Assembly (NCBI GenBank): GCA_040756875.1
Contig: JBFLYH010000001.1
Coordinates: forward strand, 1,052,778 to 1,116,777
Source: a candidate division FCPU426 bacterium
GTDB taxonomy: Bacteria; Oederibacteriota; JAAXVQ01; JAUVAV01
Length of the DNA stretch: 64,000 nucleotides
Direction of reading: 5' to 3'
Numbering within the stretch: position 1 is the first letter of the stretch; the number at the start of each line of letters is the position of its first letter. A program made the position numbers and the translations under genes. A model generated the notes under the pieces. The model was not told where the DNA came from. It did no database searches and was given only the letters and a program-made list of their open reading frames with translations. Below, in pieces: positions 2,510-26,500 of the stretch.

Positions 2510-5500
2510 TCAGGCGGCTTGTCCGGGCGAATAGCGCAGGCGCGGACGGCGCAACGGCTTTTCGAGATCCAGGGGCGCGAGGAAGGGCCACGGTTCGAGC
2601 AGCTTGCGCACGCGGCCGGTCCAGCTGGCGCGCCGGAGCAGAACGCCGGGCAGCAGCAGGCGTTGGTCGCGTCCGGTCCCGAGCGCGGCCACGGGGGCGC
2701 TGCGCAGGGCCGCGAGCCGGGACAGCAGGGCCGAAGCGTAAGTCCATTCGGCCAGGCGCTGGCCGGGGTCAGGCACGGCTTGCAGCCACTCCAGCAGGGC
2801 CAGGGCCAGGGCCGCTTCCTGCCCGGCGCCTGGTTCGCGGGCAAAGGCCAGGTACGCCGCGCCAAGCGGATCGTCCGCGCTGGCCCAGGCCGCGGCCAGT
2901 TCCGCTGCGGCGGCGGCTTCGGGCTGCCGACGTTTGGCGTCAGCCTGCACCAGCCGCAGATACAATTCCGGCGCGCGCGTCATGAGCAGCCGCTGGCTGA
3001 AACGCGCCAGCCAGGACGGTTGCACGCTGCTCAGGCGGTAGAACGCGTTCGCAACGGTTTCGGTCCAGGCAGCCGCCGCGTGCTGGCGGTAGAATTCGGC
3101 GCTGCGGTAGCGAAGGATCTGGCGCGCGGTTTCCGCGGCCAGTGCGGACCGCAGCCGCGCCCAGCGCCCGGCTGCAGCCGGCGCGCCCAGATCGGCCAGG
3201 AGCGATCCGCTGAGGTCGAGGCGCGCCGTCTGACCGGCCAGGGCTTCATAGCGGCCGAGCAGGCGCTCGGTCCAGGCGGCCGTTTCCTCCAGCTGCTCGG
3301 TGGCGAGCTGATGCGGACGGAAGGAGGCCGATTCCACGTCGTCCCGCGGGAAGTATCGCCGTTTGAGCAGGTCGAGGCGTTCCTCGGCCAGCCCGGCGTC
3401 GGACACGGTCATCGGAGCCAGACGGCCGACGACCCAGCGGCCGGTCTGAAGCAGGATCAACCACAGGAGGCGCGGCGTCCGCCAACGCTGGAATACGCGG
3501 AAAGGACGGTTCAGCAACGGCTGGTTGACCAGCGCCTCGGCGGCGGATAACCGGCGCGCCAGGCGCGGGGTCAGCCGGCCGCCTTCGGCGCTTGAGTACC
3601 GGACCTGGCGGAAAATCAGGGCGCCGGGCTGGGACTCAGGCCATCCCCGGAGCCGGAGGCTGAAACGGGCGCCGACTGATTCCAAGGCTGTCAGGCCGGG
3701 TTCTCCGGGATGAAGCTGTTTGAGATAAGTATTGCGGATGGGTTCCGCGGGCAGGGATTCCCAGCGGTCCGCAATCACGAATCCGTTCCGTTTCAGAAAT
3801 TGCCGGACCATGACGCCGGCCAGGCGTCCGAGTTTCAGCGCGGGGTTCCCGAGTTCCTGGGTTTGGTATTGTCCAACTTTCAGCAGCAGGAAATCAAACG
3901 GGCCGCGGCGGTCCAAGGCATCGGCATACGTTTCCGTGTCCTCGAGGTCCGCGACCTGCAGATAAGTGAGGCGCCGGATCTTGCCCCCCCATTCGAAGTG
4001 GACCGTGAACTGCCGGGGATCAGTCCTGCTCTGCACGGGTTCGCTGATATGGGTGGCGCCCAGCAGGTTGAGTTCCAGATTAAGGAACGGCCAGATTCCG
4101 GTCCGCGTCAGCACCGTGCGCGGCAGGCCGAGAATCTTGCCGTGTACCTGCTTGAACCGCAGATAGTAGGTTTGATTGCTGTCCAACGCCGCGCGGGACA
4201 GGGGTTTTCCGGCCGGCTGCCATGGCAGGTCGTCCACCAGCATCAGGTCCTCGGCTTGGGTGGCGTTCAGGAGCGTCGCCAGATCGGCCAAGGGGCGCAC
4301 GGCCAGGACGCGTTTGCGCTGCCGGCGCTGGTCTTCCGGATTTACCAGTCGGGCGATGTGGCGGAGATAGTCCAGGTTGAGCGTTCCGCCCACCAGGCGC
4401 GCCTCCAGGGACTCGGTCCGCCCCACGTAAACCAGCGCGGCCTTCAGGGGGTCGCGTTTCATGATGACATAGTCCGTTTCCTGCGGCCCCACGATCTGCA
4501 GCAAATAGGCGTCTTCGCCGACCGCGCTCAAGACCGTGGCATTCGCCGTATCCATGCGCCACATCAGTTGCACGTGGTCGCCGGGAAGCAGCCGCTGTTC
4601 CCCGGCTTTGACTTCCTGGGTCAATTCCACCGGGTTTAGGGGCAGGGGCGCGGTTTGGCGGCCGGCGGACGGTTCGCTCGCGGACCAGCCGGAATGGAAG
4701 ATCCGCTTGGGCGACTCCCGGATCGCATTCCGCCGGAATCCGCGCAGCCGGAAGTAGAGGTAATGGACCACCTCCACCATGGACATGCCGTTGATTTCTT
4801 CCAGCAGGCCGGCCCCGAAACGGGAGAGGCGCTTGTGGTCCTGGGTGCCGGCCTTGATGCCGTCCAGTTCGGGCACCAGTTCGCCCAGGGCCCGCGCCAG
4901 TTCCTGCTGGTTGTCGAGCATGGTGCCGTCGTAGTCGAAGACCACGGCCTTGACATTGCGGATGGAGATGCGCTGGTTGGTTTTGGCGTCGTAAAAACGC
5001 AGGGTGTTTTCGCGCGGGCTCCATTCAAAGGCGTTGTAATCCGAGATCAGGTGGTCCGCGCCGTACGTGGCCAGTTCGGTTTGCTCCAGGTCCGGCGCCC
5101 GGCCGATGGCCACGGTGCCCGGCACCATCTTCGCGGCGCTCATGTCCAGGCCGCCGTCGCCGATCATGACCACCACGCCCGGGTCCGCTGAAACGGCGTG
5201 CGCACGCCGGAGCGTGTCGGTTTTGGGGAACCGGGCGCCGAAGATCCGGCCGGTGAAGTGGGATTCCAAGCCGCGTTGCTTGAGCTCCCGCCAGGTGCGC
5301 CCTTCGGCCGAGCCGGTGGCGATGAAGAGCGGCAGGTTCGAAGCCCGGAAGTCGTCAAGCATCCGCTGCAAGCCGGGCGTAAGGGCCTTGAGTTCGCCCC
5401 GCGAATACAGTGTCCGCCAGGCCCGGCTGCGGCCCACCCGCAGGGCAAACCAGAAAACCGCCAGCGGACGCCCGAGCTCACGCAGGAAATATACCAGCGG

Positions 5501-8500
5501 CAGGACGGGATTGAGGTAAATCGAACGGCCGCGCCAGCCGTCCAGGCGCATGTGTTCCTGGGCCTGAACGTTGAGGAGGATGGTGAGGCGCAGGGCCCAA
5601 TTCACGGCCTGGAGCACGGCCAGATAAGCGCGCTCCGCCCGGTTTTCCCCCTGCGTCCAGTCGATATCCTGGACCAGCCAGCGGGCGATGAACACGCGCC
5701 GGTCCAGGGTTTCTGCAAAACGGCGGCTCACGCGGTCAATGGCCGAAAAATCCACCGGCACGTCGAACGACAGGCGGATGAGGCGCATGAGCATGTGGTT
5801 GTCTGTCAGGGTGTTGGCCGGCAGGCTTTGGTGCACAAAATGGGCGAACAGCCAGTTGGCCACTCCGGGCAGGGCGCGGCTGCCGTAAAGCAAAGTGCCG
5901 AAGCCGAAGAGCCCGAGCCAGGCCTGGGCAAACCAGGCGCCGGTCAGGGGCGCGAGCAACGCCAGGCCGAGGCCGGCTGCCAGACCCCAGCCGGAGAAAG
6001 CCAGCACATTGGCCGCCAGGTCAAAGCGCTTGCCCTGGTCTTTTTCGCCTTCCTCCGGCGCCCGGGCCCTGGCTGCATCCGCCTGATCCGCAGCAGTCGC
6101 CATTCCCAGGGCGTCGCTGGCCGCCTGGCGGACAGCCGGATGATAATCGTTCAACCCGCCGATGATCAGCCGTTTGACCGCGCCGCGCACTGCCTGGTTT
6201 TCCGCCGGAAACGCCGTGTACAGATTGCCCAATGTGCGGTAGAGCTGGCTGCGCAGGGGCGTGCTGGGTTCCTCCTCCAGCCGCCGCATGATGACCTGCA
6301 GACCTTCCAGGCCCTGGGTGCCCAGGGCCTGGGCCGCGCCCAAGCGGGCCAGACGATGCTGTCGTGGATCGAAGAAATCCGCGGCCATGGCTTTGACCGC
6401 GGTCTGTTCCATCGGGCGGACTTCCAGCACGAACACCGCAGCCTCGACAATGCCCGCGATATTCTCGCTTTCCTTGCCCACGGCACGGATGCGGTAGCCC
6501 TGTTCATACAGCAGCTGGAAGAAGCGCGGGCTGCGGATCAGGTACGGCAGCACGATCTGGCCGTTGGGTTTGAGATGGTTTTTGGCCTGGCGGAGGAATT
6601 CGGCGATCACCTGCAGGCCCGGATCCTTGAACGCCTGCTGGGCCATGGATTCAGCCGGCTGGTCGATCATGGGCGGGTTGAAATAAATCTGATCGAACAG
6701 GCCCAGGGGTTTGCCGGAAAGCAGGGAGAAGAAATCCCCCACCCAGGCTTTCACCCGGTCAGCCACGCCCAGGCGCCTGGCGACGTCGTTGGCATTGGCC
6801 ACGGCCATGGGGTTGAAATCCACGGCCACCACTTCAGCCGCGCCGCGCTGCGCGGCCAGGACCGAAACCACGCCCATGCCGCAGCCCATTTCGCAGATGC
6901 GCTCGCCCGGCTTGACGTCCACGCTTTCGATCAGCGAGGTGCTGGACGGGCCCAGGGCCGTGAAAACCGAGGCATAGGTGGGCACGCGCCGGCCCAGGGC
7001 CGGCACTTCCGACCACTCGGCCAGAGCGAAGGGTTTGACCGGTTTGGCGCCGAGCCGCGCCAGCAGCGCATCCACCTGCGGCTGGACAGCCGCAAACGCG
7101 TCCGCCGGATCTTCCGCCATTTCGGTCATCACGCCGATATAATTTTCAGGCGAGCCCTCGGCTTCGATGACCAGGGCCAGCGGTCTGCCTTGAGGACGCA
7201 GCAAATGCAGGCGGACTTGCCCCCCCCGCAGCTGCAGATGGACAATCCGCTCCAGCAGGGCAATCTGGTCTCCGGGCACTTGCCACGTCTGGCGCTGGCT
7301 GTCCGCGGATATGATCCCCTGGGTTGCATCCAGGCCCAGCACGTGTAAAAACGGCAACCAGTCATCCAAGGCCTGGGGCGATTCCCCTTGGGTCGCAAAA
7401 GGCAGGGTCAATTGCCTGGATTCCCGGGCCTGGGCGGCTTGCTTCTGGATTTGATCCTGGGCTGCCAATTGCCGGACCACGTCATTCCAGGTGATTTTTT
7501 CAGCCAATTGATAGAAAGCCGGAGGCCCGCGCATATCCGGACTGAACATCCAATCCAGCAGTCCGGGCGCCAGTTGTGGCTGCTCGCTAACCACCCATAA
7601 TGGCAGGTCACCCACGGTTTGCGAACGCACATCAATGGTGCCAAGTAAATGCAATGGATACAACATATCCATGTAATAGTTAAGGTATTCTCTCTGTATA
7701 AGGCGATATAGATAGGGTTTGTTTTGACGAGGCAGTTGATTTCTCAAGGACAGCCAGGTGCGGTTGCTCATCCGGCCCGCGTCCAGGCCCATATCGCGGA
7801 ACAGGGTCCGGAAATGCCGGGTAAGCTCCTCGGTAATCTCGCGTTTACCGTGACGGAGGTTGTAGTCATTCAGCGTCCGGATGAGCTTGGTAATGGGCAT
7901 CCGGATGAGCCGTTGCCAGTGTGCGCCCCTCTCCGCCGCATACCCTTCCCGTGGCTCGGAGAACAAGTGGGAAGCCTGTTGCCGCCATTCCTGGTAATGG
8001 ATCCCACCCAGGGTGCCGTATTCGCTCAACACTTTGGCCGGATCGTCCCGGGGTGCGAGCAGAAGGTAGGCAAAACGATCATAGCCGGCTTCGGACTGCC
8101 CCATCCTCAGGCGCAGGAACAACCGGCTGTCCTCTTCCACATATTGGATCTGGTAAGCATAAGGCGCGAGGTCCTGCAAGGCCGGTGGAACGCCTTTATC
8201 CAGCAACCCGGCCAGGGGCTTCCAGGCTGATTCAGCGACCAAACCGGGCGCTTCCCGCCAGACCATGGCCAGGGGGCCGATCGATGTGGTCAGGAACAGT
8301 TTGGCCCACGAGCCGCTGGCATCCAAAGTGGGCTGCAGCAAAGTTTTGCTTACCTGGCTGCTGTACAAAACGCCCTGTTCGAGCAGTTTGGAAACATCCG
8401 CAAGCTTGTCCATCGGATCTTTATAATCTTCGCCCTCCAGAATCCGCTGGTAGTAAGGCGCCAAGCCCTGGTCCGGAGCAGCCCAGGATTTAATGTCCGC

Positions 8501-11500
8501 CAGCAGGCGCCCGGCGCGCTGCCGGTCAAAACGGACCAGGTCCTCGAAGCCCCGCAGGTTGATCCAGAGCAAGGCGAAAAGCTCCAGGTGTGCGGCCGGA
8601 GTCTGCGGCATCAGACGGGACAACTGCAATTTGCCCAACTCCCGCGCGAGGGAAACGTCCAGCCAGTCCTGGTTTTGGAACACGCGCCAATCCAGGTATA
8701 TTCTCGGCTTGGCGCCGGTCTGAAGCTCCTTCACCCCGGCCGAGGCGAAATCGCCGGACGTGATGATCAGTTCCACATTCAATTCCTCGGGGCTGAAGCG
8801 TCCGGTCTGCAGCAGGCGGCCGCGCGCCTGGTCCAGGGCGGATTGGAACGCAGTCAGGACGGCCGGACTGAGTTGCACGAACTCGTGGCTGACATCCGCC
8901 AGCTCCGATTCGCGCCAAGACGCTGCCTGGGCCAGGCGGCCGGCTGCCTCGCGGGGCAAGGACAGGCTGGACAGGCGGTTCCAGGATCCGGCCGCGATCT
9001 GCAGCGTGCGGCCTTCGAGGCTCGGCAATGCCCAGCCGCCCTGCCCTTTAAAAATCTTCATATCGTCCTGAGCGGCGATCTGGCCCAGCCCCAGCACCAT
9101 GCCCATGGCCAGCATGCTTTCCGAAGCATTGTGGCCGGACAGCCACTGGGCCACGGCCGCCCCGGCCAAGACCAGCAAGGCCAGGGTATCAAGGTTTCCA
9201 CCCAGGTAATGAAGAACCCACGCCCAGGCCGCCTGTGCGCGCACGGCCAGGCGCTGGTTCCGCGTGATCGCCGGCTTGCCGGTCCAGGCCAGAACGCGCT
9301 CCGCCTCCTGCCACAGTTCTTCCTCGGCGCCGGTGACCGGCACTCTCGCGATGGCTGCCGCGAACCGTTCTTCGTCTTTAACGACCAGGGACTGGCCGAG
9401 GTACACGGGGCTAAACCCGTCGTCCCTGGCCGCCACATATTCGTATTGTTCCTGCATCTCCTCCGGCGCCGCGGATTCAAAGGCAGCGCGATCGGCCTGG
9501 TCCGGGAAGTATACCTGCAATACCGCCGCCTCGCCGGCGCCTGCCTTGAATTTGACCCAGGCCGTGGGTTCGGACGGAACGCTCGGCCCAAATCCGTATT
9601 CCCGCATCAGCACTTCGTGCAGAATCAGGTTTTTCATGGCCGGGTGTGTTTGCCTGAGGCGCGGGAATTGGTTGAAGAACAGCGTCAACAGGGGCCGCAG
9701 CAGTCCCATGCCCCGTAAATCCCGGGCGATCAGCACGCCCCGCAGGCCGCTGCCCGCATAGCCGTCGGCGATCGGCATCCGGTAGGCCAGCAGCTCGGCG
9801 AATTCTTTGGCCGGGGTCTGGGGCCGGATCAGGCCCACGCCGATTTCCGTCACCAGGGACCTCTGCTGCCGCAGTTCCACGGTCCGGCCGCGCGACGTGA
9901 GGCGCACGCGGTCGCCGGCCAGCTGGATCTGGTCCGCCGCCGTCGCCGGCACGCCGCGTTCGGCCTCCAGCTGCGCCAGGGTCAGCGGCCGGCCGGCTTC
10001 GTCGCGCTGGAAGGACACGCGGTAAGCCACTTCGGCGTTGAACAGGCGGCTGGTGACGGGATTCAACCCCAGATGGCCGTCGGTATCGTTGAGCGCGCCC
10101 GGCGGAGAAGTGACCGGCTCCAGGGCGAAGAAACCCGTTTCCTTGTCCCACACCACCACGAACGGCATGTTTGCGGACTGGGCCACCTCGATCATCAGGC
10201 CTTCGGTCTCGTTGTAAGCGCGCGACACCACCTGGCCTTCTGGCTCGGCCTGCAGGTCGAGCAGCACACCGTGGCGGCTGCGGTCCGAAGCCTGGAAAGC
10301 GCGCAGGTCCATGGACGAACGGTCCACGGTCCGGGGCGGCCCGGTCGGAAGCATGTCCCGGGTGGGCAGCAGGCGTTCGGCCGGAACCTGCAGGAACCAT
10401 TTCCCCTCCCCGCGTTTGAACCAGGGATGGCTGCCCGTGGTGAACACCGTGGCATTGTCCACCTGGATGCGGTTGAACAGCTCCGGACCGGACAGGCGGT
10501 AGGTCAGGGCCAGGCGGCCGGGGCCGAAACGCTTCAGGATCTCCGGATGGCTGCGGTTGTCGAAACGGACGCGGACTGAAAGGCCCTTGGCATTGACGCT
10601 GATTTTGTCCACGTGGAACGGCTGGCGCCGCACCAGGCCGTGATAGACGGTGCCCTGCGCGTTTTTCTTGGTCAGCCCGGCGTCCGTCAGCGCCTTGTCG
10701 CCCAGGTCGATGAGGCGGCCGTTGAACATGAATTGATTGCCGGCCACCTGGTCGATGTAGGGATACATGACTTCGATGCCGCCCGAGGACGGCACTTTGT
10801 CGAAATGCAGGATTTCCCGGCCGGCGACGGTGAAGGAAGCGATTTTGGCCGCGAACCCGGGCACGATCTCGAAGGAACTGTCGTGCGCCAGATCGCGGAA
10901 GATCAGGGTGTCATAGCCGTCGCGCGAACCCCGCTGGACGTCATAGCGCCCGGCCCAGGGCGAGAACCGCTCGGCCACCCGGGCGTAGGCGCGGGCCAGC
11001 CAGGCCGGCAGCCAGGGCGCGTTGACCTGTAAAACAAGGACGCGGGCGGCCAGGGCCTGTTGCCGCAGCGCGTCAGCAGGACTGGCTTCGGCCTGCAGCA
11101 GCAGGCTGCTCACGATCCGCAGGGCCCCGGCTTCGGCGCCCCGGGGGATTTGTTCGCGCAGGAAGGCGTCGAAAAAGCCCCGGCTGAGCCCGCCCATCTT
11201 CCGGGCGGCCGCGGGATCGGCCAGCAGCGCCTGCAGCAAGCCGCGGTCGAACATCCGCGCTCCGCCGGCCGCTTCGAGCCCCTGCCAGGCTTCGCGGTTG
11301 TATTCCCAGTGCGAACCGAAATACAGCACGGGCTTGCCCTGGGCCGCGGGCTCCAGTAGGTTGCGGTCGTTGCCCATCACCACCACGTCGGCTGCTGCGT
11401 AGAAGGCGTTCATCTCGCCGACGCTCTCCACGAGCAGGATATTCTTGCCGGACAGGTCCGGGTACGCTTCGCCGTCCGCGCGCCGGACCTCGCCCGCCTG

Positions 11501-14500
11501 CCCCTGCAGAACATCCAGGGGCGTCTGCGGATAATCGATGTCGTCGCGGCGCAAGCCGACCACGACCACCGGCCGCTCCGCGATGGGCAGGCCGGCGTAT
11601 AAAGCCCGGTACTCCGCCATGAAGGCATCGAGTTCGTGCCGCGACGGAGAGCCGAGCACGATCAGCGGCCGGCCGGACAGGTTGAGGTCCAGCCGCAGCC
11701 TGGCGGCCGCGGCTTCGGGCACCTGCTCCGGCACGCCGTATTTCAGGGGCGCGTAATTCACGGCCACGCAGCTGACGTCGTTTTTCTCAAAAGGCGCGGC
11801 TGCGAATTGGTTGTCGCGGAAAGTCAGGCCTACGGCCGAGCGGTTTTCGACTGATTGCGGTTCCCGGGCCCACTGCGGGAATTCCCTGGCCGCCAGGCCG
11901 GCCATGCCGGGTTCGCGTTCCTCGTTGACGCCGATCACGACGTCTTCGGGTTGCAGACTCAGGGCCCGCACCAGGCCCTGTAGGGCGCGGGCCGAGGCGG
12001 TTTCGTACAAATTCAACTTCAATTTCTTGCCCAGGGTCCGCAGTAAGGCCGGAACCAGGCCGGCCGCTGTGGAGGCAGAGGCAAACGCGGCATTGCGGCC
12101 GATCATCCCCTGCCGCCGGGCGTTCCGGAACCAGCCAAGGATCACGGAGGCGGCGTCGTATTGATCCGGGTCAGCCAGCAGCAGGTTGAGCCAGCGGATT
12201 TTTTGGGCCGGTTCCGCGGTTTGGTCGCTCAACAAGCCGGTGATCAGATCCTGCCGGCCGTCAACCGCCAGGAATTCCAGGCCCGCGCGCGTTATTTTTT
12301 CGAGTTCGCCCGCCAGGGTGGGGTCTTTGGGCAGCAGGGGCATGACGCGCAATAATCGGGCCGCTTGTTCCGGTTTGATTCCCCGGAATTTGACCACCGC
12401 CTGCTGCAGGGATGAACGGGCCATCAGCAGGGTCCGGAAATCCAGGTTCGCGAGGCCCCGCTCCCAGGCTTCGGCCAGCCGGTCCAGTACCTGGCGCGGC
12501 TCCCCGGCTTGGAAAGCGCTGGCAATGGCTGCGTTGTAGTCGACCGGAATTTCCGCCGCGCCGGTCCGGAATCTGCCCCATTCCGCAAACAAAGCGCGCG
12601 CTTCTTCGGCCAGCCAGGCCAGGCCGGGCAGGCGCTGCCACCACGCGATCAAGCCGGCCGAAGTCCGGTCAGCCAGGTAATGATGAAGTTCGTGCGCCAC
12701 CACCTGCAGGCGCCGGGATTCAGGCAGGGAGCGGAGATTGGCGTGGAACGCCAGCGCGCGGTCCGAGGGCGAATAATATGCCGCCGGGCCGAAAAGGAGC
12801 AACAGACGCCAGGGCGATATTTTCAGGGACTCGATCCGCAATAATCTCAGGCTTTCGGGAATCGCCTCGGTTTCTCCATTCACCCACGGCAGCCAGTCCG
12901 CAGCCAGGGGAACCTTGAACCGCACATCCAGGAGGCTGCGCATATCGCGGCGCAGGTCCTGCATGTCGTACGCCCGGTCAGCCGGTTTGAACAAGCCGAG
13001 CACCAGGGGCAGGCGCCAGGCAAAATGCGGCAGCAGCGCCACCGCCAGGCCAGTGCCCCACCCTAAACCAGTTTGCAGGCCCGAGGCCCACAGCAGCAGG
13101 TCCACCACCACTCCGGCCGCGATTCCCGCCAGGCCGAGCACGCCCAGAGGCTGCCGTGGAGCTTCGCCCTCCGGCGCCCGGGCCTTTCGCTCCACAATGA
13201 ACATTTTGGGCATCGAAGCCATGGGCGTCGCGGATTCCAGGTTGGAAGCCGGATAGTCCGCGGGCAGGTCCGCTTCAACCCAGTTCAAATCAGGATCAGC
13301 GGCAGCCAGCTGCTCCAGCCGCCGGCGCGTATTGGCGATGAAATCTTGTTCCTCGGTGTAGGCGTGCGTAATCACGAGCAGGCCGCCGGGTTTGACCAGG
13401 CCCAGGGCCGGCGCGATCAGGTCGTTGTTATCGATGTTGTTCAGCGTGACCAGTTCCTGGGCTTGGGGGTGCAGGCCCACGGCGGCCAAATCCTGCGGGG
13501 AGTGGATGTCCGCGTACTGCACGCGCAGTTCCTCGGGCGCCGCGCGGTCCATGATACCCTGCTCCACACTGACGCCCGTGGAAACGCCGAAGCCCAGCTG
13601 CTGCACCAACTGGCGCAGGTTGCGGCCGAACTCGGCGCGCGCGCCGGCCCCCAGATCCGCAAACGCCAGGCTGGCCCGGCCGGTAAAACGTTTCTGCAGG
13701 AAGGCGCCGAAAGACCGGCTCATTTCCTGAAGATCGGAGGCCTGGGCCTGCCTGAGGCGGCGTTCGGCCAGCAGGTTTCTAAGGTAGTCTGACTGCGTGT
13801 AGCCGAGGCCGAGCCGCACCTGGTTGGTTCCCGGCAGCACCTGAAGCGCATGCATGGCCAGGCCGCCGATGATCTCAGGGCGGGTCAGTTCCACGCCGCC
13901 GATGCTGACCGTCGCGCTTGAAGCCAGGAAGGCTTCGATCGCCTGCATGGTGGGCTGGTTCCGGCCGTTCCGGACGGCCTGGATCAATTCCCGCCTGGAC
14001 AGGTCCGCGGGCTCGAGCGCCATCTGGTTGTTGTTCCGGCGCACAGGCACCACCAGGCCGGACATAATGCTGCGGTAGGCTTCAAACAGGGTCAGCCGCT
14101 CGGCTTGCCGGATTTGCTGCAGCCGTTCGCGCTCGGATTTGGAGACTTTGGGTTTCTTGTCCTTGCCCTTTTTAGCCGAAGGTTTGGCAGCCTGAGGTTG
14201 CACGCCGCGGGTTACAATGTCGGCCACCTCGATCGTGTCCACGCCGTTTTGCAGGGCCCAAGCCAGCAGGGCATCAGCAGCATCCTGCCGGGCGCCAATC
14301 AGGTTTTCGACGAAATCCACGATTTTCAGCCCGACCACATGCCTGGCCAGGACCTTGTTCTCGTAACTCCACACCATGCGGCCGTCCCGGATCGCCTGGT
14401 AGGATTCGATGCGGTGGCTGGCAAAGCCAAAAGGTGCAATGGCCGCGCGCACGAATTCAGGGTCCTCGCTCACGGACCCGCGGATGCTGCCGTTGCGGAT

Positions 14501-17500
14501 GTCCTCCAAGGGTGACTCGAGGAAAAGCTTCAGGAAGGCATCGGCGCTGGCCTTGCGGGTTCGGTCCAGTTCTTCGGCATAGGCAGCCGGGTCCTGCCCC
14601 ACCACCCGCACGCCATAGCGGCCGTCCGCGAACACAGGCACCAGCCGGCCGGCCCGGATGTGGCGGATGGTTTCGAAAAGATTGGGCTGCGCCGGGGTGT
14701 CGACCACCCGGCCCTGGGCATCCACCAGGTCGATGTACACCACGCCGGTCTCGGGCAGCGGTTCGACCAGAGATTGCTCCCGCTCCTTGCGTGACCGCTG
14801 GATGAGGGCGAAGATCGGCTCAGCCGGCCTGCCCACAATGCCGACCTGCTTGACGCCGTCCCGTTCCCGATAGATCAGGCGGCCTTCGCGCACGTACTGG
14901 TCCACGTCCTCCACAGTGGGCCAGACTTCGTCCGGGATCTGCTTTTGCGCCTGGCTTCTTTCCATATATATCTGCCCGGGCTTCAGGCTCAGGGCATAAT
15001 CGTCGGCTGCCCGGTTCCGGGCGGCCGTGACTTCGGCCATGTATTCCGGGGTGCCCATGTCCACCACGTACATTTGCAGGGCGTTGGTTTTGGGGTTATG
15101 GCGCCAGCCCAGTTTGCCCTGCATGATGCCTTCCCGGACTTCTTCCACATTGGGCCGGTTGAAGCCTTCGAACACATCCAGGCCGGTGTCGCTTTCCAGG
15201 TCGACGTACAGGGTTTCTCCGGGCAGTTGATCTTCGAACTCATCCTGGATTTTCTGCCGCCCGGCTTCCAGCACCCGGAAATAATCCGCAGCGCGGATGC
15301 CGGTCAGGCGCAGCCAAACCCCGCCATCCGGATAAACGGTATAGCGCAGCCAGCCCTCGCGCAGTCCGCGCTCCGCCTCCTGGGTGTTGGGATGACCGAG
15401 ATAAGCGTGGGCAGGGGCGGCTTCCAATTCTTCGTCAGACAGCATCAGGCCCATGGCCCGTTCGTTTTCGTCGAACAGGCGCTGGAACTGCTCAGCTGCT
15501 CCGGCGCGCGCCTGGCGTATGTTTTCCAGGTAGTCCTCGGCTGATCCGGCCACCAGCGCGGGCAGGTCCCTGCCCTCCTGGGTTTCGATGGTCAGACGGC
15601 CCGAAGCCACGGCCAGGTAGGCTTCTTCCCGGTTCAGGCGCAGCGCGCCTTCCCGGGCGCCAACCAGGGGCAGCATATAATCGCCGGTAGCCTGGGTCTG
15701 CTGCCAGAGGCGTTCAGCCCATTCCACCCGGGCTTCGTCCAATTGATTCAAGTACTCCTCGAGGCTTATTTTCCTCGGGGTTACGACTACCTGGCCGTCC
15801 GCTTCCCGCCAGGTCAGGCGGCCTTGGCGGATGTCTTCGTACGCTTCGAGCACATTGGGCCGGGAATCATCCTCGCCCGCGCCGGCCAGTTCCACGAACA
15901 CCTGGCCGTCCGCCAGGGCCCGGCGGAACATGCGGGCTTCGTATTGCTGGTTCTTCTGCCGCTTCTCCTCGGCGGTCATCTGGCCGCCCCGGGATTTGTT
16001 GCTCTTGGACATGAGGAAGGGCGCCTGCAGCAGGGGGATCAGGTCCGTGGTGCCTGCGGGCTGCACGAAACGCACCGGGCTTTGCACGGTGATTTGGGGC
16101 CAGGGCAGGCGGGCCAGTTCAGCCCCCAGGGCGCGGGCTTCCTCGGCGAGCCAGCTCAACCCGGGCAATTGCCGCCACCCGGCGCGCCGGCCGGCAGGCG
16201 CCTGTGCAGCCAGATAATGATCCAGCTCGTGCGCCACCACCTGCAGGCGCCGGGCTTCGGGCAGAGAGAGCAGATTGGCGTGAAGGGCCAGCACATCGGC
16301 GCCGGGCGAGTAGAACGCCGCCGGGCCGAAAAACAGCAACAGGCGCCAGGGCGACAGGCGCAAGGTCTCGATGCGGAGGTTCCGAAGCTCGGGCGGGACG
16401 TTCTCGTTGGCGCCCCGGATCCAGGGCAGCCAGGCCGCAGGCAGGGGCACTTTCAGGCGCACGCCCTGGAGCTTGCGCAAGTCTTCGCGTAAATCTTGCA
16501 AACCATAGGCCCGGTCAGCTGGTTTGAACAAGCCGAGCACGAGCGGCAGGCGCCAGGCAAAGTACGGAACCAGCAGTGTGGTCAGCCCGGTTCCCCAACC
16601 CAGGCCGCCCTGCAGCCCGGCGGCCCACAGGACCAGGTCAACCGCCAGGCCGGCGAACACCGCGGCCAGGCCCAGGACAGGCATGGGTTGTTTGGCTCCT
16701 CTTCCCGCTGCCGGAGTCTTTGCCGTCTGCGGCCGGGAGATGATGTGCACTTCGTTTTCTTCGTCGTCCGGGTTGATGGTATCCAGGACCTCCAGGCCGT
16801 TGGCTTCAGCCTCGGCATAGATCAAGCCGGCCGCGTCACCCCGGTTCCACACGATGAGGCGCCCGCGGTCAGGAACCAGGGATTCGCCGGTGCCCAAAGT
16901 CAGCTGGCGGATGAACTCGCCGTTGTCTCCGTCCGCATAGCCGGCGAGGCGCTTGGGCCGCAACTGGCCGTTGTTGACCAGCACCTGCCGCACCCATTGC
17001 GCGATTTCCTCCAGCGTGCCGGACACTCCAGCCAGGAACTCCCTGGCGATCTGGGCGTAAAAGCCTTTTTCTTCCTCGGACATGCGCTTCACGAACGGCG
17101 CATTGGAAAAGATCAGCGCAAATTGCTCGCCCGCAAAGGCCCATTGGCCGTCCCGGGACATTATATTGTCGTGCACCTTGGCAATCAGCGGGAACCCCGC
17201 GGCTTTGGCCAGGTAGCGGGAATTGGCCACTTCGAAGGGATTGATGCCCACGGCATACACCGGCAATCCGGCACCCAGCCAGGCGATCCAGGCGTCAATG
17301 CCCGACCCCGGGCCCACCACCAGGATTTTATCGTCCTGGGCGAGTTTTTCGTTTTTGCCGGCGATATAGATGCTTCTCAAGTACATATAATCCGCGAGGA
17401 AATTCTGGCCGAGGCCGGTTTCGCCTTCGCCCAGGGCCGGCGAATAAACCGTGGGAAAAACCGGGAACAGCACGCGTTTGACCTCGGGCCGGGCGTCATA

Positions 17501-20500
17501 GAAACGGTCCAAAATCCCGCCCTGCGTGCGAAGGACATCCGCAAAATCGAATTCCATGAACCAGGGCATGAACAGGCCCATTTCCTCCACGAACTGCGCG
17601 AAGACGAATGGTTTGTGCCCCAGGTCCGGCACTTTGGTGACAATCTCCGCCAGCCCCCTGCTTTCCAAATACTGGCGGATGGCCTGCTGGTCAGCCTGCC
17701 ACTGTCCGGCCTGGTCCAGCCAGTGCTGTTTGAATTCCCGGTCATCCCAAGCCGGAAGCGCAAAATTGAAAGCCGAGAAGTCGAAGTAATTGAGCGGGTG
17801 CGTATCCCGGTTCGGAAATTCAGCCAGCAGTTGTCCGGACACTACCGGGAAAACGGCCAGCAGCTGCCCCTGGCGGTTGTAAAGCAGCTCGAACTCCCGG
17901 GTGGGCCCCAGTTCATTGTGCAGCACGTCAATGCCCTGCGGCGGTTCGGACGGTTTGGCCCGGACCGGAGCCAGGATGCGCTGCACGGTCAGCCGGGTGG
18001 TTTCATCGGTCCGGGTTTCCAGCACCCGGGCGCTTTCCAGTTCCAGCACCTGCAGCAGTTCGTGCGCCGGCGTGCCTTCGGTCCGGGCCAGCAAGGCCCC
18101 GACATCCACCCGGTCCGAATCATCCGCGGGCCGGGCTTCCGCTTCCGGCGCGCGCGCCTGTTCTGCCGCGACATCGACCTTTTCAGTCTGGCATAGGAGA
18201 ACCATGGCGTTCCCGCGGGTACCGACCTGCCGGAAGCCCAGGCCGTTGTAGAGATTGACCGCCGCTTCCTGGATTTCCGAGGTCACCAGGGAGATGTTCC
18301 GGGTTTTTTCCTGGGGATAGGCGGCAAAGCCCTGGGCCTTGAAATCCGCCATGGCCTGCAGCATCAGTTTCCGGCCCAGCCCCAGCCGGCGATAGGCCTC
18401 GTCGACCACCAGGGCTTTGATGTACAGGGTGGGTGTGTCGATGTTGGCCAAGACGCTTGCAGGCCGTTCATAGGCAATGAGCATGGCCACCGGTTCGCCG
18501 GCGGCGTTTTCGATGACATAGCTGCGGTTCCAGCGGTTGAACCAGCGCACGCCGTTGACGACTTCGGCATCGAGGTCTTGCGGATGCATGACCGGCAGAT
18601 GAGGATCGCGGTTGTGCAGGTCGAGCAAGGCCTGCTGTTTGCTGCGGGCATACGCCCGGTCCAGCGGGCGCAACTCCTGGACCGAGTTTTCGCCGGGCAG
18701 TTGCGCCGCCTTCCGCCCCGCCTGCTCGGCAGCCAGGGCCTGCCATTCGCCTGCCAGCCAGCTCAACCCGGGCACTTGCCGCCACCAGGCGCGCCGGCCA
18801 GCAGGCGCCTGCGCGACCAGATAATGGTCCACTTCATGCGCCACCACCCGCAGGCGCCGGGCTTCGGGCAGGGAGAGCAGATTCGCGTGGAAGGCCAGCG
18901 CATTGGCACCGGGCGAATAGAACGCCGCCGGGCCGAAAAACAGCAGGAGGCGCCAGGGCGAAATTTTCAGGGAATGGATCCGCAATGATTGCAGGTCTGC
19001 GGGAACTTCTTCGGTTTGGCCGCTCACCCAGGGTAGCCAGCGTCCGGGCAGGGGCACTTTCAGGCGCACGCCTTGCAGTTTGCGCAGGTCTTCGCGCAGG
19101 TCCTGCAGGCCATAGGCCCGGTCAGCTGATTTGAACAAGCCGAGTACGAGCGGCAGGCGCCAGGCGAAATATGGAACCAGCAGAGTGGTCAGCCCGGTTC
19201 CCCAGCCCAGGCCGCCCTGCAGCCCGGCGGCCCACAGGACCAGGTCAACCGCCAGTCCGGCGAACATTGCCACCGCGCCCAGGGCAAACAGCGCCTGCTG
19301 TGCGACCCGTCCGGGTATCTCGTACCTGAGAATCCGGCCGCTGGGCGTTTCCTGGAACCCGGATTTGACAAGGAACTGTTTGGTTTCCTTCCATTCCTCG
19401 GTTCCCTCGGCTCCGGGCCCCTGCTGGAAAGAGATTCTTTCGATGTTGGTTTCCTGATACAAAAGGCCGGGAATGGTCATGGCCTTCATGACCAGCAGCA
19501 GGACCTGGCGCCCGTAACCCTGCCGCAAAAAGGGCGGATAAATCCGGATGCCGATTATTCCGGTTCGCGACCGTTCATTGTCCCGCGCGATGAGCGCATG
19601 TCCGATGACTTCGCCCTGCTGGTTCTGAATGACGACGATGTATTCCTCGGGTTTGGTATCCTGGTTGCGGAAAGCGGTCACCACCACCGCGCCGGCCTGG
19701 AACCGGCGGCCGTGGTATAAGTCCAGGCGTTCCTCGAAGGGCATGGGCCTGCCGCCCTCCTCCAGGATGGCGTATCCGTGGCGGGCGTGGGCGGCGCGCA
19801 AATCGCGGAGCAAATCCCGCACCAACTGATCGTCACGGTAGTTAAAGACCTTGGTTTCGACCTCCAGGCCTTGCGCCTGCTGCCAGGTAGCTTCGGCTGT
19901 GCTCAGGACAGCCGCGGGCCTCTGCCGGGCAAACGCGTTGGCGAGGCCTTCGGCCTGCTGCGGCAGGTCCAGGGCGCGGCCGCGCAGGTTGAAATCCGTG
20001 CTGAAACGGAACCGGGTCTCGCGGGTCCCGGTGCCACGGTCGCGGATCTCCAGTTTAACGCCGGCGAGAGCGACATCCAGCCCGGCGGGTTGGGAGACCA
20101 CTTCGTATCGGCCGTCCGCGCGCCGGATCTTGATTTCACCGGCTATATACTGCCGCCGCAGCGGCCCGAAGGAATTATAGAGGTCCACGCGGGGATCATC
20201 CAGGCGGTTCCAGGCCTGCTGGTCCGGTTCCTGCATTTCCATGGTCCCGGCCTGGAACAATTCCAAAGCAATGCCGAGCATGGCCGGATTGCGGACACTG
20301 TCAAAGACCAGGGGCATGGGATTGTCCGGATAGAGTTCCCGGGCCAGGCCCTGCAGCCAGCGGCTGACAGCCAATCCCCAGCCCTGCCCTTCCACGGGTT
20401 CAGTGGCTTCTATATTTAATAGCCGCAGGTGGTCCCCGGCCAGTTCAAAACCCACGGCCAGGCTGCCTTCCGGCAACTGGGTGGAGTACAGGAATTCATA

Positions 20501-23500
20501 ATGGCCTTCGACGAGAATCCGCTCCCGGAAATGCAGGGCAAGCCGGCTGCCCGGCTGCCGCGGGTTGTCCACGGTCACGGTCCTGGGCACGTCCTCGCCG
20601 GTCTGCCACTCCGGTTCGCCGTATTGGACGCGCTGGACCGGCGCGCCTTCGGTAGGGCCAGCGGTTTCCAGGCGCGCAACCAGTGCCCGGTCCACCGCGC
20701 CCTCCTGCAGCAGGCTGTCGAGCGAAACACGGCCGTCGTAGAATGCCAATCGGCGGTAAGGCGTGCCCTGTTCATGCGCGTCCAGAAAGTTTTTCAGGGC
20801 CAGGCCGGCGGCGCGGAACCCGGCCCGGTCTCGGCCCTGGTCATCGCGTGCTACGATAACACCGGGCTGGCCGGTTACGTCTTTTGCCGGTCCCAGGAAA
20901 ATCGGAAAGCGCAGGCCCGGCAGGCCGGCGTCGGTCAGGAAATCATCGATCACCGAATCGCCCAGGAGCAGGAGCGCGCCCGCGGCCGGAAGATTTGCAG
21001 CCCAGGTCCGCACGTGGTCACGCTTGCGAGCCAGGCTGAATTTGGCGTAATCAGTCGAAGCGCCGGCCATGAATTCCGGGAACTGGTCCGCCAAACCCCA
21101 TTTTCCGAGCAGGGCCTGCGCGCCGGCCAGCACGTCCCTGCCCTCGACGATTGTGTCGTGTGAGGAAAGGTTCACTTCGTAGTCATAAGGCTGGAAAAAG
21201 GCCGTGGTCCGGCCTTTAACCACAGCCTGGAAGCGGTCTTTAATTTCCAAAAAATCGTTGCTGGCTTCGATGGCCGCCAGTTCGTTTTCCAGGTCCAAGC
21301 CCTGCTGCCGGCCAAGCAGCCGCAGATAGGACAATGCCAGGGCTTTGCCCAGGGAGATCTGTGCGGCCGGTTTGACCACCGGGCCTTGCCGGCGTTCGAA
21401 GCGCGTGGTTCCTTGTGCGTCAAAGGTGAAGGTCTCGCGGCCGGTGTTGGCTTGGATTTCCAGGTTGGCCAGGGCCGCCAGATCGCCGGTTTTGCCCAAT
21501 TCGGTCCGGAGTTGCCGGATAATGCGGAGCTCGAGAGAATCCTGGTCCCGAATCTCGGTCCGTTCCACAAAATCCCGCGGATCGTTGGAACGGAATATTT
21601 TACTGGTCTGCGCCGCGCGGCCCGGACTGCCGCTGATTAAAAGCACGGGAATCCCGGCCTTGAGGGCGCGCACGATTTGATCCAAAGCCTGGCGCGTCAG
21701 CGGCGCGACGGGGGTGTCGGTCAGGGTCAGGTCCACGTCCGCGACCAGGCCGCGCAGGCGCACGGGCGCGTTGGGGTCCAGACCGGCCGGAGTCTGCGCC
21801 AGCACGCGGTCCTGCCAAGCCTGATCCGTGGTCATTCCCATGGCGCCGACAACCGGCCCCTGAGCCGTTGCCAGACCCGGGGCAGCCAGCCGCTCCCGGA
21901 TCAGGTTCGCGAAAAACGTCTTTGTCTCTTCCCCGCTCTCCCGGCCGGTAAGGCGCTCGCGGCCGCGCTGCACCGCCTCCTCCAGGGCCGACAGCGGCAA
22001 TCCGAGTTTTCCGGCTAGTTGGGCGGATTCACTGCGCGCGGCTTCCACGAACCCCGCGCTCATTTCCGGCGATAGGCCCGGCAGCCTGCCAAACACCGCG
22101 TGCTCGTATAAATCCGCCAGGTAGCCGCCGATTTGATCCAGGCGGCTGGCCAGGGTCCGGGCCGCTAATTCTTCGGCCGTGAAAACCCTGGCCGACCCCT
22201 CGGGGAAATCGCTCTGGCCGCGGGGCAGCTGGACCGTCAGGTTCAGGGGCACTTCGGCATATCCGTCGTAGTCGATTCCCACCAGCCGGCGCGGGCCTTC
22301 GCCCACCGGCGTTTGCAGGAAAAACGGCATGGCCGCGCTGGCGTTTTCGTCAATGAGGCCGCGGATTCCAGCCTCCGCCTCGGGCCCGAGGTTGCCCACC
22401 GCACTGGCTGGAGCGGAAATGCGGCCGGCGTCGTCCCGCAGCCAGATGCTCACCCGCTCATCGGGCTCAACGCGCAGCGTATAGCGCCAGTTGCCGCCCC
22501 CAATATAATAATGAACCAGGGTGCCGACCGGCAGGAGGCGCAGGTTGATCCACTGGGCCCTCTGCGAACGCTTAGGGTCCAGAACCGGCGGCGCGCTTTG
22601 GTCTTCAACGCGGACCGCAGGTTTGCGGCTGGTTCCGAACTGCGACATGGCCAGGGGCGCGAAACGGTTCACGGCGAAATGAACCAGGAAAGCGGAGGCC
22701 AGAACCACGGGCAGCGAGCTGGAGACCGCCAGCAAGCCGAGATTAAGGACCGCGATAAGGGCCGCCAGCGCGAGATTGAGCGCCGGCGCGCGGCGGCCGG
22801 CTGAATCGGCGATGAAGTGCAGGCCCAGGAACGCGGGCCAGGCCAACAGATAGGAAGCCCTGGCAGCCAGCGCGATGTCGCCCGTGGCCCAGTAGAGCGG
22901 CACGCCCAAAAGCAATCCCGCGCCGGCCAACACCAGGCTGTTCTCCAGCCAGAACGCCACCCAGCGGTCGTAGCGGCTGCTGCGCGCCTGGCGCGTGGCT
23001 TCGTCCGGGTTGCCCCGGTTGACATACCATTCTTTGACGCGCGGCATGATGCCGCCGGCAGCGAAGCGGCCCTGCATGGCCTTTTCAGCGGCCTGCACGT
23101 CCGCTTCGGCGGGCATTTCGAAATATTTGCCGGCAAACCGGGTCGGCTGTACTTTAGTTTCAGGTTCGCCCTGCACCACGGTTTCCGGCCGCGGCTGCAG
23201 GGACACCGGCGTATCCAGTTGCAGGTAAGGCACGAACCGGGTGGGATCGAAGATCAGCCACTCGCCGTCCACCTTGACCAGCAGCACGCCGTGCGCTTCG
23301 TTTTCGGTCAACAGCGAATTGCCATCCACATTCGAAAGGCCCATGGCAAAAACCGCGTCCAGGCCCAAGTAGCGCAAATAAATAAACGCGTTCATGGCCA
23401 GGGCTTCGCAATCGCACAGGAAACGGCGGCCCTGCTCCAGTTCCCCGTTCACGAACGAGCCCCAGGTCCCCTGGTTGAGCGCGTAAATCTGCCGTTCGTA

Positions 23501-26500
23501 GTAGGCGAAGTAATCCACGATCGCCCGCATGGCCGCCTGCGCTTTCCACTGTTCGTTGGACAGCGGCTGGTTGCGGTCATTGCGGAAACCGGTCCAGCGT
23601 TTCACATCATCCAGTTGGCCGCGGATCACGTCCGGAATGTCCGCGAATTCGCGCTCCAGCCTCGGCGTGACCGGGAAGCTGCCTTGGAGGTCGCCGTTTT
23701 CCGACATTTTTTCGATTTCATAATCAAGCGAGTATTCGAGATTGTCCGCCTGTCGGCTTACAATCTTGCCGTCCGAACCAATGCTGACCTTCTCGTCCGG
23801 CCCGGCGACATAGTGTATACGGCCGTTCACAGTGACGGGCGCATTGATGCGAAGTCCGCTTTCCAGGTTGGGGAACAGCACGTCCACCTGCACGCGTTCG
23901 CCGGTGGGCTGCCCGCGGCTGACCAGGTTCAGGCTGCCCTCTTTGGAAAAAGCGCCGGCATCATTGATCGCGTTGAAAAAACCCGTGAAATAAATTTCCG
24001 AAGGCGCTCCGGAGCGCCGGCCGGCATTGCCTGACAGGCGGGCGCGCACTAGTTCGGTCACGGTCAGCGTGCCCTCGGATGGAACGGCGGTTTTTTCGGC
24101 CTCGACCACGGAAGGCAGGCGGCCGTCCAGCGCCCGCTGTTCCGGGTCCAGCGGCTTGTAATAATACCCGCGCTGCCGGACCAGGTTGATCTTCTGGATG
24201 CGGGCTTCCGTGGGAGCCACCGGCTCCGAATAGTAGATATTAGGCCTGGCTTCGCGTGACACGCCGGCCAGGGCGGCCAAAGGCTGGGAAAGTGCCGTGG
24301 TCAGGGACAGGGCCAGCAGGAACGCGGTCGCCAGCCATCCGGTCGACAGGCTCAGGCGCGGCCAGCGCCAGTGAAACGCCATCACCCTAGGCACGGCTTG
24401 ATTGACGATGAAGTGCGACAGGACCCCAGCGCCCAGCAGCAGGGGCAGCGACAGGCCTGACAGGCACAACCCTATATTCAGGAGGGACAACAAGCCGGCC
24501 AGCGCCAGGTTGAGCGGCGGCGCGCGACGGCCCTGCGAATCAGCGATGAAGTGCCCTCCCAAAAACGCCGGCCAGGCAGCCAGCATGGTCGCACGCAGAG
24601 CCAGGGAGATGTCTCCGGTTGCAGCCACGACCGGCAAACCAACCAGGAATCCGGCAAACGCCAGGGTCAGACTGTTCTCCAGCCAGAACGCCACCCAGCG
24701 GTCGTAGCGGCTGCTGCGCGCCTGGCGCGTGGCTTCGTCCGGGTTGCCCCGGTTGACGTACCATTCCTTCACGCGCGGCATGATGCCGCCCTGTCCGGAG
24801 TAGGGTTCCTTGACCACGACCGGCGCCTGGGCGAACGCGGCGTTGAATTTGGCCTGGTCCTTCACCACCAATGTCTCGCCCAGATACAGCGGTTCGAACT
24901 CCGGCGTCTTGCGGTCCACGATGGCGTATTGTTCCCGGATGGTGAGCGGGGCGTTACCGACCAGGTCGCGGGCCGCGGGATCCACGAAAAACAATTGGGC
25001 CCGGACCTTTTGCGTGCGGTCGGCTTCCGGAAGCATCCGGATCCAGGCATTGGGTCTGAGCGGCTTTTGCGGCCCGAAGCCGAATTCGCGGATGAGCATG
25101 CTCTGCAGCATGGGATTTTCCAGCTTCGGATGGGTTTGACGCACCTCGGGATACAGGTGGAAAAAGAGGTTGAGTAAGGGGCGCAAGAGATTCATGTCGC
25201 GCAAGCCGGTCAGTTCCTCAATCAGCAAACCCCGCAACCCCAGAAGGCCTCCCACCTCCGGTTCGCGCAGGGCATAGACGAAAATATCGGGCACGCCGGT
25301 CCACTCGTCCCATTTGCCGCCCATGCCGTAGTAATTGAGCATATATCCCTGTCTGGCCCCCTGCCGCAGGGGCTGGTACTCAAAAACCAGACGCTCGGCT
25401 CGGCTGTGGATGGCCACTTCCAGGCGGTCAATGACTACTGCCCGCCCGGCAATCAGGCCCGGCTGGACAGTCATTTCGGGCACGACAAACATATTGGGCG
25501 CCAGGGCGTCCTCGTACAAGCGCTGGGTGAACGCCGGCAGAATCAATCCGCTGATGGAGCGGCCTTCGGAAGCAAAATCTTCCTCGTCGATCTGGACGCC
25601 TTCCAGGTGCTTGCCGCTGTGCAAGCGCTCCACCTGGATCCCGAATTGCTCCTCCCATTGCCGTAACTGCTCCGGCGCCGGCAGTTCGTCCGCCGTCACG
25701 CCGATGCGGATCGGTTCCTCCGGATCCACGGTGAGCAATTCTCCCCGGCCCCAGGCGCCGATCAAATACAATCCCGGGAATCCGGGGCCGTAGAACTCCA
25801 GCAGTTCCCTGATCACCTTCAGAAAACCGCTTTGAGCCGCCTGCAAACGGTCCATCACACGTTCCGGAATGGGCGTATAGCGGTCAGCCTCGGGCAAACC
25901 GGCCGCCACCGCGGCCTGCGGGGTGAGGGGCACCAATTCCCCCTGCTGTTTTTGGAACACGCGGTAGAAATTATTCTGGCCGGCAATGGTGTTGCTGACT
26001 TCAATATAGAATCCGCCTTCGCGCAGATTGGCCGCGATTTGCTGCCGCGCCCGCTCCCAAACCTCGGGCGAAAAATGGATCGCCACGTTGGCGGCGCGGA
26101 TCACGTCCACCGGCGTGGGCAGCTTGAAGTCCATGACATCGCCCTGGAACAGGCGCAAGCCCGCCTGGAGATATTTGGGATTCTGCCAGGGATTCCAAAT
26201 GCCTTCCGCCCGGTCCAGGGCATACGCCTGCCCCTTGCCCGGCTGAGCCCGGCTGTAGGTTTCCAGGGTTTTAAAGCGCCGGCGGAATTCAGCAGCCAGG
26301 CTTTTCCAACGGGCAATAAAGCTGGCGCCCACGGTGCGGCCGCTGCGGGTCATCAAACTGATGATATTGCCCTGGCTGTCGAATATGGCCTGGACTTCCT
26401 CGCGGTCGCCGCGAACCACGGCCAGGGGCAGGTTTTTGTCCATGCCCAGGAAATCCACCTGCGGGGCGGCCGTGCTTTCCCGGTCCAGCTGCCGCCGCAC

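Follow-up and report, generated by a model that had tools for sequence, protein, structure and literature searches.

Giant open reading frame and its repeated units

The DNA analysed here (the window, 64,000 nucleotides; positions 1,052,778 to 1,116,777 of contig JBFLYH010000001.1, assembly GCA_040756875.1) belongs to an uncultured groundwater bacterium of candidate division FCPU426. The genome (G000) comprises 3.22 Mb in 7 contigs and is 100% complete as judged from marker genes. Of the sequencing runs listed as containing this DNA, one was recorded, probably the source run, and none is an RNA run. A giant open reading frame (ORF) of 10,037 aa, without any internal stop, occupies positions 2510..32623 of the minus strand. 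Within it, a unit composed of a hydrophobic two-helix hairpin and a zincin-like domain with an HExxH motif occurs three times. This unit, and its possible role in the giant protein, is the subject of the present analysis.

The boundaries of the units were taken from BLASTP comparisons of 200-aa fragments with the whole giant protein. Three repeats of ~198 aa were obtained, with pairwise identities of 67-82% and E values from 1e-71 to 1e-85. Units 1 and 2 share 81.6% identity over 163 aa (E 4.8e-74), units 2 and 3 share 68.4% over 193 aa (E 8e-85), and units 1 and 3 share 67.5% over 163 aa (E 6.9e-71). This likeness is far beyond chance. The edges of the units are sharp, as the 40 codons on either side share just 21-42% nucleotide identity.

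All three units are encoded on the minus strand. Unit 1 (aa 4438-4635, window 18719..19312) contains the motif HEVDH at 18824..18838 and, 26 residues past the second histidine, an invariant distal glutamate (aa 4626, window 18746..18748), which is a candidate third metal ligand. Its hairpin (window 19139..19282) consists of helix 1, a 9-residue uncharged loop and helix 2, and carries a conserved Asp (aa 4460) and Arg (aa 4489). Unit 2 (aa 5307-5504, window 16112..16705), whose sequence was used for modelling and as the first alignment row, has HELDH at 16217..16231, the invariant distal Glu at aa 5495 (window 16139..16141) and the hairpin at 16532..16675, with Asp 5329 and Arg 5358. In unit 3 (aa 6486-6685, window 12569..13168) the motif is HELHH (window 12680..12694), the invariant distal Glu is aa 6674 (window 12602..12604), and the hairpin with Asp 6508 and Arg 6537 spans 12995..13138.

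An earlier note on this DNA had described a recurring unit of ~185 aa with two membrane helices and an HExxH motif. The three copies are real, and the intervals given there, which translate to aa 4445-4633, 5315-5502 and 6494-6681, do contain HEVDH, HELDH and HELHH together with WLAGE or WLAEE. The length has to be revised to ~198 aa, with an N-terminal side 7-8 residues longer. It was also found that the count of three is complete. A profile built from the 21 copies described below detected exactly three unit domains in the giant protein with all filters off, and a regular-expression search of its 10,037 aa returned exactly three HE..H strings, each within a unit. No further copy was present elsewhere in the 3.22-Mb genome, so that the total remains three.

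An assembly artefact was rejected as the source of the repeats, because the copies differ by 20-30% of their nucleotides. It is also contradicted by uninterrupted giant ORFs with 2-4 units, which recur in independent genomes. One patch of the repeats is more alike than the rest. Codons 21-40, in the hairpin, show 98% nucleotide identity and 95% identity at third positions between unit 1 (window 19193-19252) and unit 2 (window 16586-16645), whereas the two units are 57-92% identical outside the patch. This suggests a recent gene conversion between units 1 and 2.

Active site, predicted fold and membrane hairpin

Conservation was evaluated in an alignment of 21 copies, three from the window, 15 from the loci of relatives and three from database proteins. 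A same-genus copy straddling two loci was left out in favour of a near-identical database copy, as were three short fragments and a relic found in relative G014. Overall identity of the rows to unit 2 is just 28-74%. The first His of HExxH is kept in all 21 copies, the catalytic Glu in 20 and the second His likewise in 20. The distal Glu (E192 in unit-2 numbering), 26 residues past the second His, is present in 21 of 21, and a second glutamate seven residues beyond it (E199) in 20 of 21. The gluzincin signature pointed out in the earlier note is therefore conserved in homologs, with HExxH in 20/21 copies and the distal Glu in 21/21. All 12 HE..H strings in the unit-bearing ORFs of seven relatives fall within units.

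The aligned copy that deviates, copy 2 of the same-genus giant, has HVLNR in place of HExxH. The G014 relic (L021, ORF aa ~6471-6587) is a degenerate zincin domain without hairpin, in which HALEQ replaces the motif; it sits in an ORF of >7,000 aa of the sister family. A tree of the 21 copies was mostly unresolved, and the sole pairings were units 1 and 2 of the window genome and two copies of G004.

The AlphaFold2 model of unit 2, calculated on the 21-row alignment, reached a mean pLDDT of 84 and a pTM of 0.77. The modelled elements are, in order, a strand (residues 9-14), the hydrophobic helices 16-31 and 40-61, three short helices, the strands 114-118, 129-136 and 141-145, the HExxH helix 153-171 and a helix 186-200 that carries the two glutamates. 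The zincin core has been described as three strands, an HExxH helix and a Glu helix (PMC5512222), and the layout of the model agrees with that description. The structure prediction, proposed earlier as a check, places HExxH and the distal Glu on two consecutive helices behind a small sheet, as in zincins, with minimal zincins as the best, though weak, structural neighbours.

When the model was compared with 48,161 chains by VIA-align, selecase ranked first (Z 5.0, rmsd 4.0 Å, 94 residues aligned), followed by proabylysin (Z 4.9) and projannalysin (Z 4.6). SPRTN (4.1), lugdulysin (4.0), PprI (3.8) and BlaR1 (3.5) came next, and BepA reached 2.8. ArdC gave Z values of 3.1-3.3 and, in a second structural comparison, IrrE gave 4.2. 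As counted from their titles, about four in five of the best 50 VIA-align rows are HExxH metallopeptidases. The best PDB rows of Foldseek were weak matches to selecase (E 0.032), IrrE, SPRTN and proabylysin, while the BFVD matches were IrrE- and SprT-like phage proteins with E values of at least 0.03. The unit has the superfamily-level sequence features of a gluzincin, with HExxH on a helix and a Glu on the next helix of the model, and a zincin fold is suggested, the best Z of 5.0 and the best Foldseek E of 0.032 lying below the levels that these tools treat as dependable. No single score carries this assignment; motif, secondary structure and the kinds of protein among the matches agree in pointing to it.

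Several metallopeptidase families were approached in the family-model searches. Peptidase_M78 (PF06114) scored at best 19.7 bits (E 7.7e-4), on unit 3, below its gathering cutoff of 22; on the units alone it scored 12.3-12.7 bits, and it was matched by five of the 21 copies at E <= 1. SprT-like (PF10263) reached 23.6 bits on one unit of G003, below the cutoff of 25.6, and was matched at E <= 1 by four copies (best E 0.015). MPTase-PolyVal (PF18818) was matched by one copy (E 0.15). Peptidase_M48 and M56 were absent from the 17 Pfam families matched by the 21 copies at E <= 1. When the unit profile was searched against PDB sequences, all matches had E >= 0.055, and the sole peptidase was proabylysin (E 0.53). 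The top matches there, to an FAD-binding FR-type protein, were taken as compositional, being alignments of membrane helices. The ESM Atlas gave a best score of 0.85 (SprT-like, DUF3920 and M78), to be read as leads only.

The two hydrophobic helices had been counted as part of the unit, and their conservation across copies bears this out. The hairpin is conserved as strongly as the catalytic part. Arg55 is present in 20/20 copies, position 26 is acidic in 18/21 and Gly15 is retained in 19/21; Leu-Pro is found at positions 56-57, and the uncharged loop is rich in glycine. On the Kyte-Doolittle scale helix 1 scores ~2.0 and helix 2 about 1.1-1.3. The strand 9-14 ahead of the hairpin is confidently modelled (block pLDDT 92), and the remaining sheet follows the hairpin. 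For this reason the hairpin appears to be inserted in the protease fold, and not attached as a loose N-terminal tag. In 20 hairpins, Lys and Arg make up 60 of 259 residues in the N-flanks, 6 of 180 in the loops and 60 of 303 in the C-flanks. From this charge pattern, the positive-inside rule predicts a cytoplasmic location for the two ends of the hairpin and for the protease domain.

Modules around the units and distribution in relatives

The earlier note had stated that each unit is followed by different cargo, and this holds. Directly after unit 1 lies a GNAT acetyltransferase domain (aa 4694-4797, window 18233..18544, minus strand), recognised by Pfam Acetyltransf_1 with E 3.1e-17 and by a PDB GNAT with E 0.0047; a weak GNAT match also precedes this unit. 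Unit 2 is followed by ~980 aa (aa 5505-6485, window 13169-16111, minus strand) of weak repeats of ~75-95 aa with 24-31% identity. Neither Pfam nor the PDB gave a match to this stretch, which separates units 2 and 3, and its repeat block is common to relatives G003 and G004. After unit 3 there are ~490 aa without a match, the PDB sequence search included, and then an aldose-epimerase-like domain. Other domains recognised by Pfam in the giant protein are a SAM methyltransferase, HAD and HEAT repeats. The giants of relatives contain LOG/SLOG, HATPase_c, metallophosphoesterase and Rhomboid domains. The Rhomboid protease domain (Pfam E 1.8e-27; L017) lies at aa ~8588-8735 of the G003 giant, between its third and fourth units.

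On the upstream side, the enzyme domains end 7-30 residues before helix 1. In G001, for example, a LOG domain ends ~7 residues ahead of unit 3. The stretches before units 2 and 3 of the window giant have no Pfam match; judged from their sequences they resemble methyltransferase folds whose ends lie 12-15 residues ahead of helix 1.

The distribution of the unit was determined by an exhaustive HMMER search of 1.84 billion cluster representatives with a three-copy profile (E <= 0.001). It was found that 13 proteins match, all of them long proteins or contig fragments and all confined to the order of the window genome, and the search gave no link of the unit to any known family. A word-indexed search with the 21-copy profile among proteins of 414-2000 aa returned two matches, both already known. 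A match of one unit to a Nocardia genome, over 22 residues, was judged spurious; the other match was a same-genus contig.

Within the phylum, 11 of 61 genomes carry the unit (G000 included). Leaving G000 aside, it is present in seven of 10 genomes of the same family and in three of four of a second family of the order, and in none of the 46 genomes of fifteen other families. As to the search of other giant ORFs suggested by the earlier note, the unit recurs in very long ORFs of relatives with one to four copies. Collinear giant ORFs of 9,859 aa (3 copies), 9,269 aa (4 copies) and 6,246 aa (2 copies) were found, together with single-copy ORFs of 3,214, 1,979, 1,304 and 1,281 aa.

The same-genus giant is collinear with that of the window over ~700 aa at the N-terminus and ~2,900 aa at the C-terminus, and the middle is mosaic. 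The stretches that follow the three units (aa 4636-5282, 5505-6480 and 6686-7175) have no counterpart in it, and two of the three reappear beside units in another genus. Shorter members of the family retain the N-terminal domain, one unit and the C-terminus. Across these proteins the copy number of the unit follows the number of modules, and the units stand at module borders.

The giant gene is flanked by genes for DUF1538, RecG, RelA/SpoT, MurJ, HolA, LptE and LeuRS. All are housekeeping genes, and the locus does not belong to a mobile element. The earlier view of the modules as effectors or cargo, secreted ones in particular, is not supported, given that the neighbours of the units are cofactor-dependent, cytoplasmic types of enzyme, the flanks are positive-inside, the surrounding genes are housekeeping genes and toxin or secretion domains were not detected.

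Further modules were observed in the giant protein, all on the minus strand. One is repeated at aa 866-1065 and 1681-1884 (window 29429-30028 and 26972-27583) and has the invariant motif HE.GE ... H..LRG.GK, that is, HExxE in place of HExxH. Relatives hold further copies (one in G001, three in G003, two in G004). The best structural neighbours of its AlphaFold2 model (pLDDT 84.9) are again zincins, namely deuterolysin (Z 6.2), AsaP1 (6.1), Ste24 (5.8) and minigluzincins (5.2-5.6). No profile-level relation to the hairpin unit was detected (hhalign probability 0.4). From these neighbours and the lack of a profile relation, the giant may carry two unrelated types of zincin-like module. A transglutaminase-like Cys...His...Asp core at aa ~3058-3127 (window 23243-23452; Transglut_core E 0.013, below cutoff) is possibly a third protease-like domain or a cross-linking one.

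A membrane module repeated at aa 2612-2749 and 3190-3327 (window 24377-24790 and 22643-23056; copies 71-83% identical) consists of a conserved soluble lead-in of ~40 aa and several hydrophobic helices, and is also found in relatives. The N-terminal domain of ~650 aa (aa 1-700, window 30524-32623), after a signal-peptide-like segment at aa 38-57, is among the best-conserved parts of the protein. Compared with the same-genus giant it is 63-88% identical over aa 5-674; for another genus the figure is 51-69% over aa 22-600. Neither Pfam nor NCBIfam nor the PDB provided a match for this domain. In the ESM Atlas, the clusters closest to it consist of unnamed proteins, for the most part of Omnitrophota (score 0.90), which serve as a lead only.

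Function of the units and comparison with known systems

The features described above point to each unit as an integrated module of a new, lineage-restricted family, in which a minimal gluzincin-type domain would have a two-helix hairpin built in. The protease-like module is real, and self-processing of the giant is plausible. In the reading that we prefer, with a probability of about 0.4, active units cut the giant at or near the module borders. The hairpin would dip into or cross the inner membrane, leaving its ends and the catalytic domain in the cytoplasm. With an upstream enzyme that ends 7-30 residues before the unit, such a cytoplasmic arrangement would hold this enzyme against the inner membrane surface, next to the active site. 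The giant itself could then be the target of limited proteolysis, in cis or between units, close to or at the module junctions, so that one 10,037-aa product would become membrane-tethered enzymes in a fixed ratio. The similar repeats may double as recombination handles, which would explain the swapping of modules among relatives. The complete sequence of events, with co-translational insertion of the hairpins, cleavage at the borders, tethered enzymes in fixed stoichiometry and units serving as handles for cassette swapping, is doubtful as a whole.

Self-processing is favoured by the position of the units at module borders and by a copy number that tracks the modules. The polyvalent proteins (PMC5512222) offer a precedent, and the Rhomboid domain set between two units of G003 also counts in its favour. 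Several observations weigh against it. No model of Pfam, NCBIfam or PHROGs recognised the units at its threshold, a Foldseek search of the unit model against the PDB gave nothing at E <= 0.001, and all Z scores of this model are 5.0 or lower, under the level that VIA-align calls reliable. Helix 2 is only moderately hydrophobic, and the hairpin may be re-entrant instead of spanning. Should strand 9-14 belong structurally to the sheet, cleavage in cis at the upstream junction becomes less likely. In the 21-copy alignment no conserved sequence resembling a cleavage site was detected at the unit ends, save a basic-Pro-hydrophobic lead-in to helix 1. The two copies without the motif (HVLNR in the same-genus giant and HALEQ in G014) indicate that not every junction needs an active unit. 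Finally, relatives' proteins of 1,281 and 1,304 aa hold one mid-protein unit, which fits a general membrane protease equally well.

It is possible, if doubtful, that the units are active membrane-tethered metallopeptidases with other substrates and that the giant stays intact. Such substrates could be membrane or nascent proteins under quality control, as for HtpX, a regulator or partner, as for BlaR1 and ImmA/IrrE, or the neighbouring enzyme modules, whose turnover the units would control. Active-site conservation and fold would be the same under this explanation as under self-processing. The single-unit proteins just mentioned and the lack of a conserved junction motif speak for it, and so do the nearest folds IrrE/PprI and BlaR1, which cut separate proteins (for BlaR1, PMC6925264). 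However, the unit was never found as a free-standing small protein, as all 13 matches among the 1.84 billion representatives are long or fragments. Moreover, a housekeeping protease would need neither a copy number that scales with the modules nor a location at their borders, and no partner gene is evident among RecG, RelA/SpoT, MurJ, HolA, LptE and LeuRS.

A mainly structural role, in line with the anchor considered in the earlier note, is unlikely but still a competing explanation. Here the unit would act as an anchor or spacer, its hairpin holding one enzyme module after another at the inner membrane, and the zincin-like domain as a stiff connector or docking surface without proteolytic activity, perhaps stabilised by metal. 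The highly conserved hairpin with its buried acid-Arg pair, the short distance of 7-30 residues between the upstream enzyme domains and helix 1, and the retention of two copies without catalytic residues would suit such an anchor. The second repeated membrane module (aa 2612-2749 and 3190-3327) shows that repeated anchoring is a theme in this protein. A plain anchor, however, has no need of ~140 conserved soluble residues, and the near-perfect retention of four catalytic or ligand residues in copies that are otherwise 28-49% identical is hard to explain without catalysis or metal binding. That the hairpins assemble into a pore or translocation device moving neighbouring modules across the membrane, as the earlier note had also considered, is highly improbable. 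Charged residues are indeed conserved within the hydrophobic helices, and the loop is Gly-rich, but between 1 and 4 copies occur per protein, helices in even number bring the two flanks to one side of the membrane, these flanks obey the positive-inside rule, and the neighbouring domains use cytoplasmic cofactors. The translocation idea thus received no support.

Bacterial ORFs of 10,000 to >100,000 aa are increasingly reported, and whether such products act as single chains or are cleaved has been stated to be an open question (10.1101/2023.11.21.568195). The unit provides a discrete and mutable candidate for a processing module; it bears a classical active-site signature and is located exactly where swappable modules meet. 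It also gives membrane-associated gluzincins such as HtpX and BlaR1 a minimal model. If the complete sequence of events outlined above is correct, it would represent a chromosomal polyprotein strategy in bacteria with a dedicated new protease family, and would for the first time give a concrete answer, limited to one lineage, on whether giant proteins act whole or in pieces. The family is very small and limited to one uncultured order, and what is stated on its function, catalysis and self-processing included, we infer.

The minigluzincins (selecase 4qhf, proabylysin 4jiu, projannalysin 4jix) resemble the unit in their zincin core of ~100 residues with a small sheet, an HExxH helix and a ligand helix. 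This likeness is weak (16-19% identity, rmsd ~4 Å). These archaeal proteins are soluble, exist on their own and lack a membrane hairpin, whereas the unit never stands alone and has ~45 extra helical residues before the sheet and a strand ahead of the hairpin. In IrrE, a Glu follows HExxH by about 26-27 residues. Peptidase M78 (ImmA/IrrE/PprI) shares this spacing with the unit, besides the weak Pfam matches and Z values of 4.2 for IrrE and 3.8 for PprI. M78 enzymes, however, are soluble and have a repressor as substrate; the unit is membrane-tethered in a giant, and no such partner occurs among its neighbours. The M48/M56 enzymes (HtpX, Ste24/ZMPSTE24, BlaR1/MecR1) combine a gluzincin core with membrane helices and a cytoplasmic active site, and BlaR1 is described as undergoing autoproteolysis (PMC6925264). 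The unit differs from them in having just two helices, located before and not within the segment from HExxH to Glu, and in being repeated in one polypeptide.

The giants of Omnitrophota (West-Roberts et al. 2023; 10.64898/2026.06.07.730766) are, like that of the window, very long and rich in membrane helices, and they share with it and with the giants of its relatives a repertoire of HEAT_2, HATPase_c, Lysine_decarbox, HAD_2, methyltransferases and GNAT. Cleavage of Omnitrophota giants by C39 or S8 domains has been proposed (10.1101/2023.11.21.568195). The main text of that 2023 preprint contains no mention of zinc or HEXXH, and the main text of the 2026 preprint (10.64898/2026.06.07.730766) no wording on cleavage or zincins; the supplement of either may list the unit. 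As it occurs in just 13 cluster representatives, the unit is no general feature of Omnitrophota giants. No published description of it was found in the literature searched.

MARTX, to which the giant had been likened earlier, and large clostridial toxins resemble the system in concept only, since in them a built-in protease frees modules from one chain. MARTX autoprocessing uses a cysteine protease, and its modules are secreted effectors, whereas those of the window giant look cytoplasmic. Peptidase_C80 gave no Pfam match at E <= 0.01 in the whole giant. In polyvalent proteins, one to five zincin domains are placed among unrelated enzymatic domains and have been proposed to cut the chain into functional units (Iyer et al. 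2017, PMC5512222). Their interspersed zincins and mosaic, shuffled architecture recall the unit-bearing giants. Polyvalent proteins belong to mobile elements (phages and conjugative elements), are delivered into other cells and have no hairpin; the giant studied here is chromosomal and lies among housekeeping genes. The zincins of polyvalent proteins are considered a better precedent for the unit than MARTX. From M78, the SprT-like proteins, M48/M56, the polyvalent MPTase and the minigluzincins the unit departs in at least one defining feature each. On the model, it represents an undescribed zincin family with a hairpin between the first strand and the remaining catalytic domain, set in a chromosomal giant array of enzymes.

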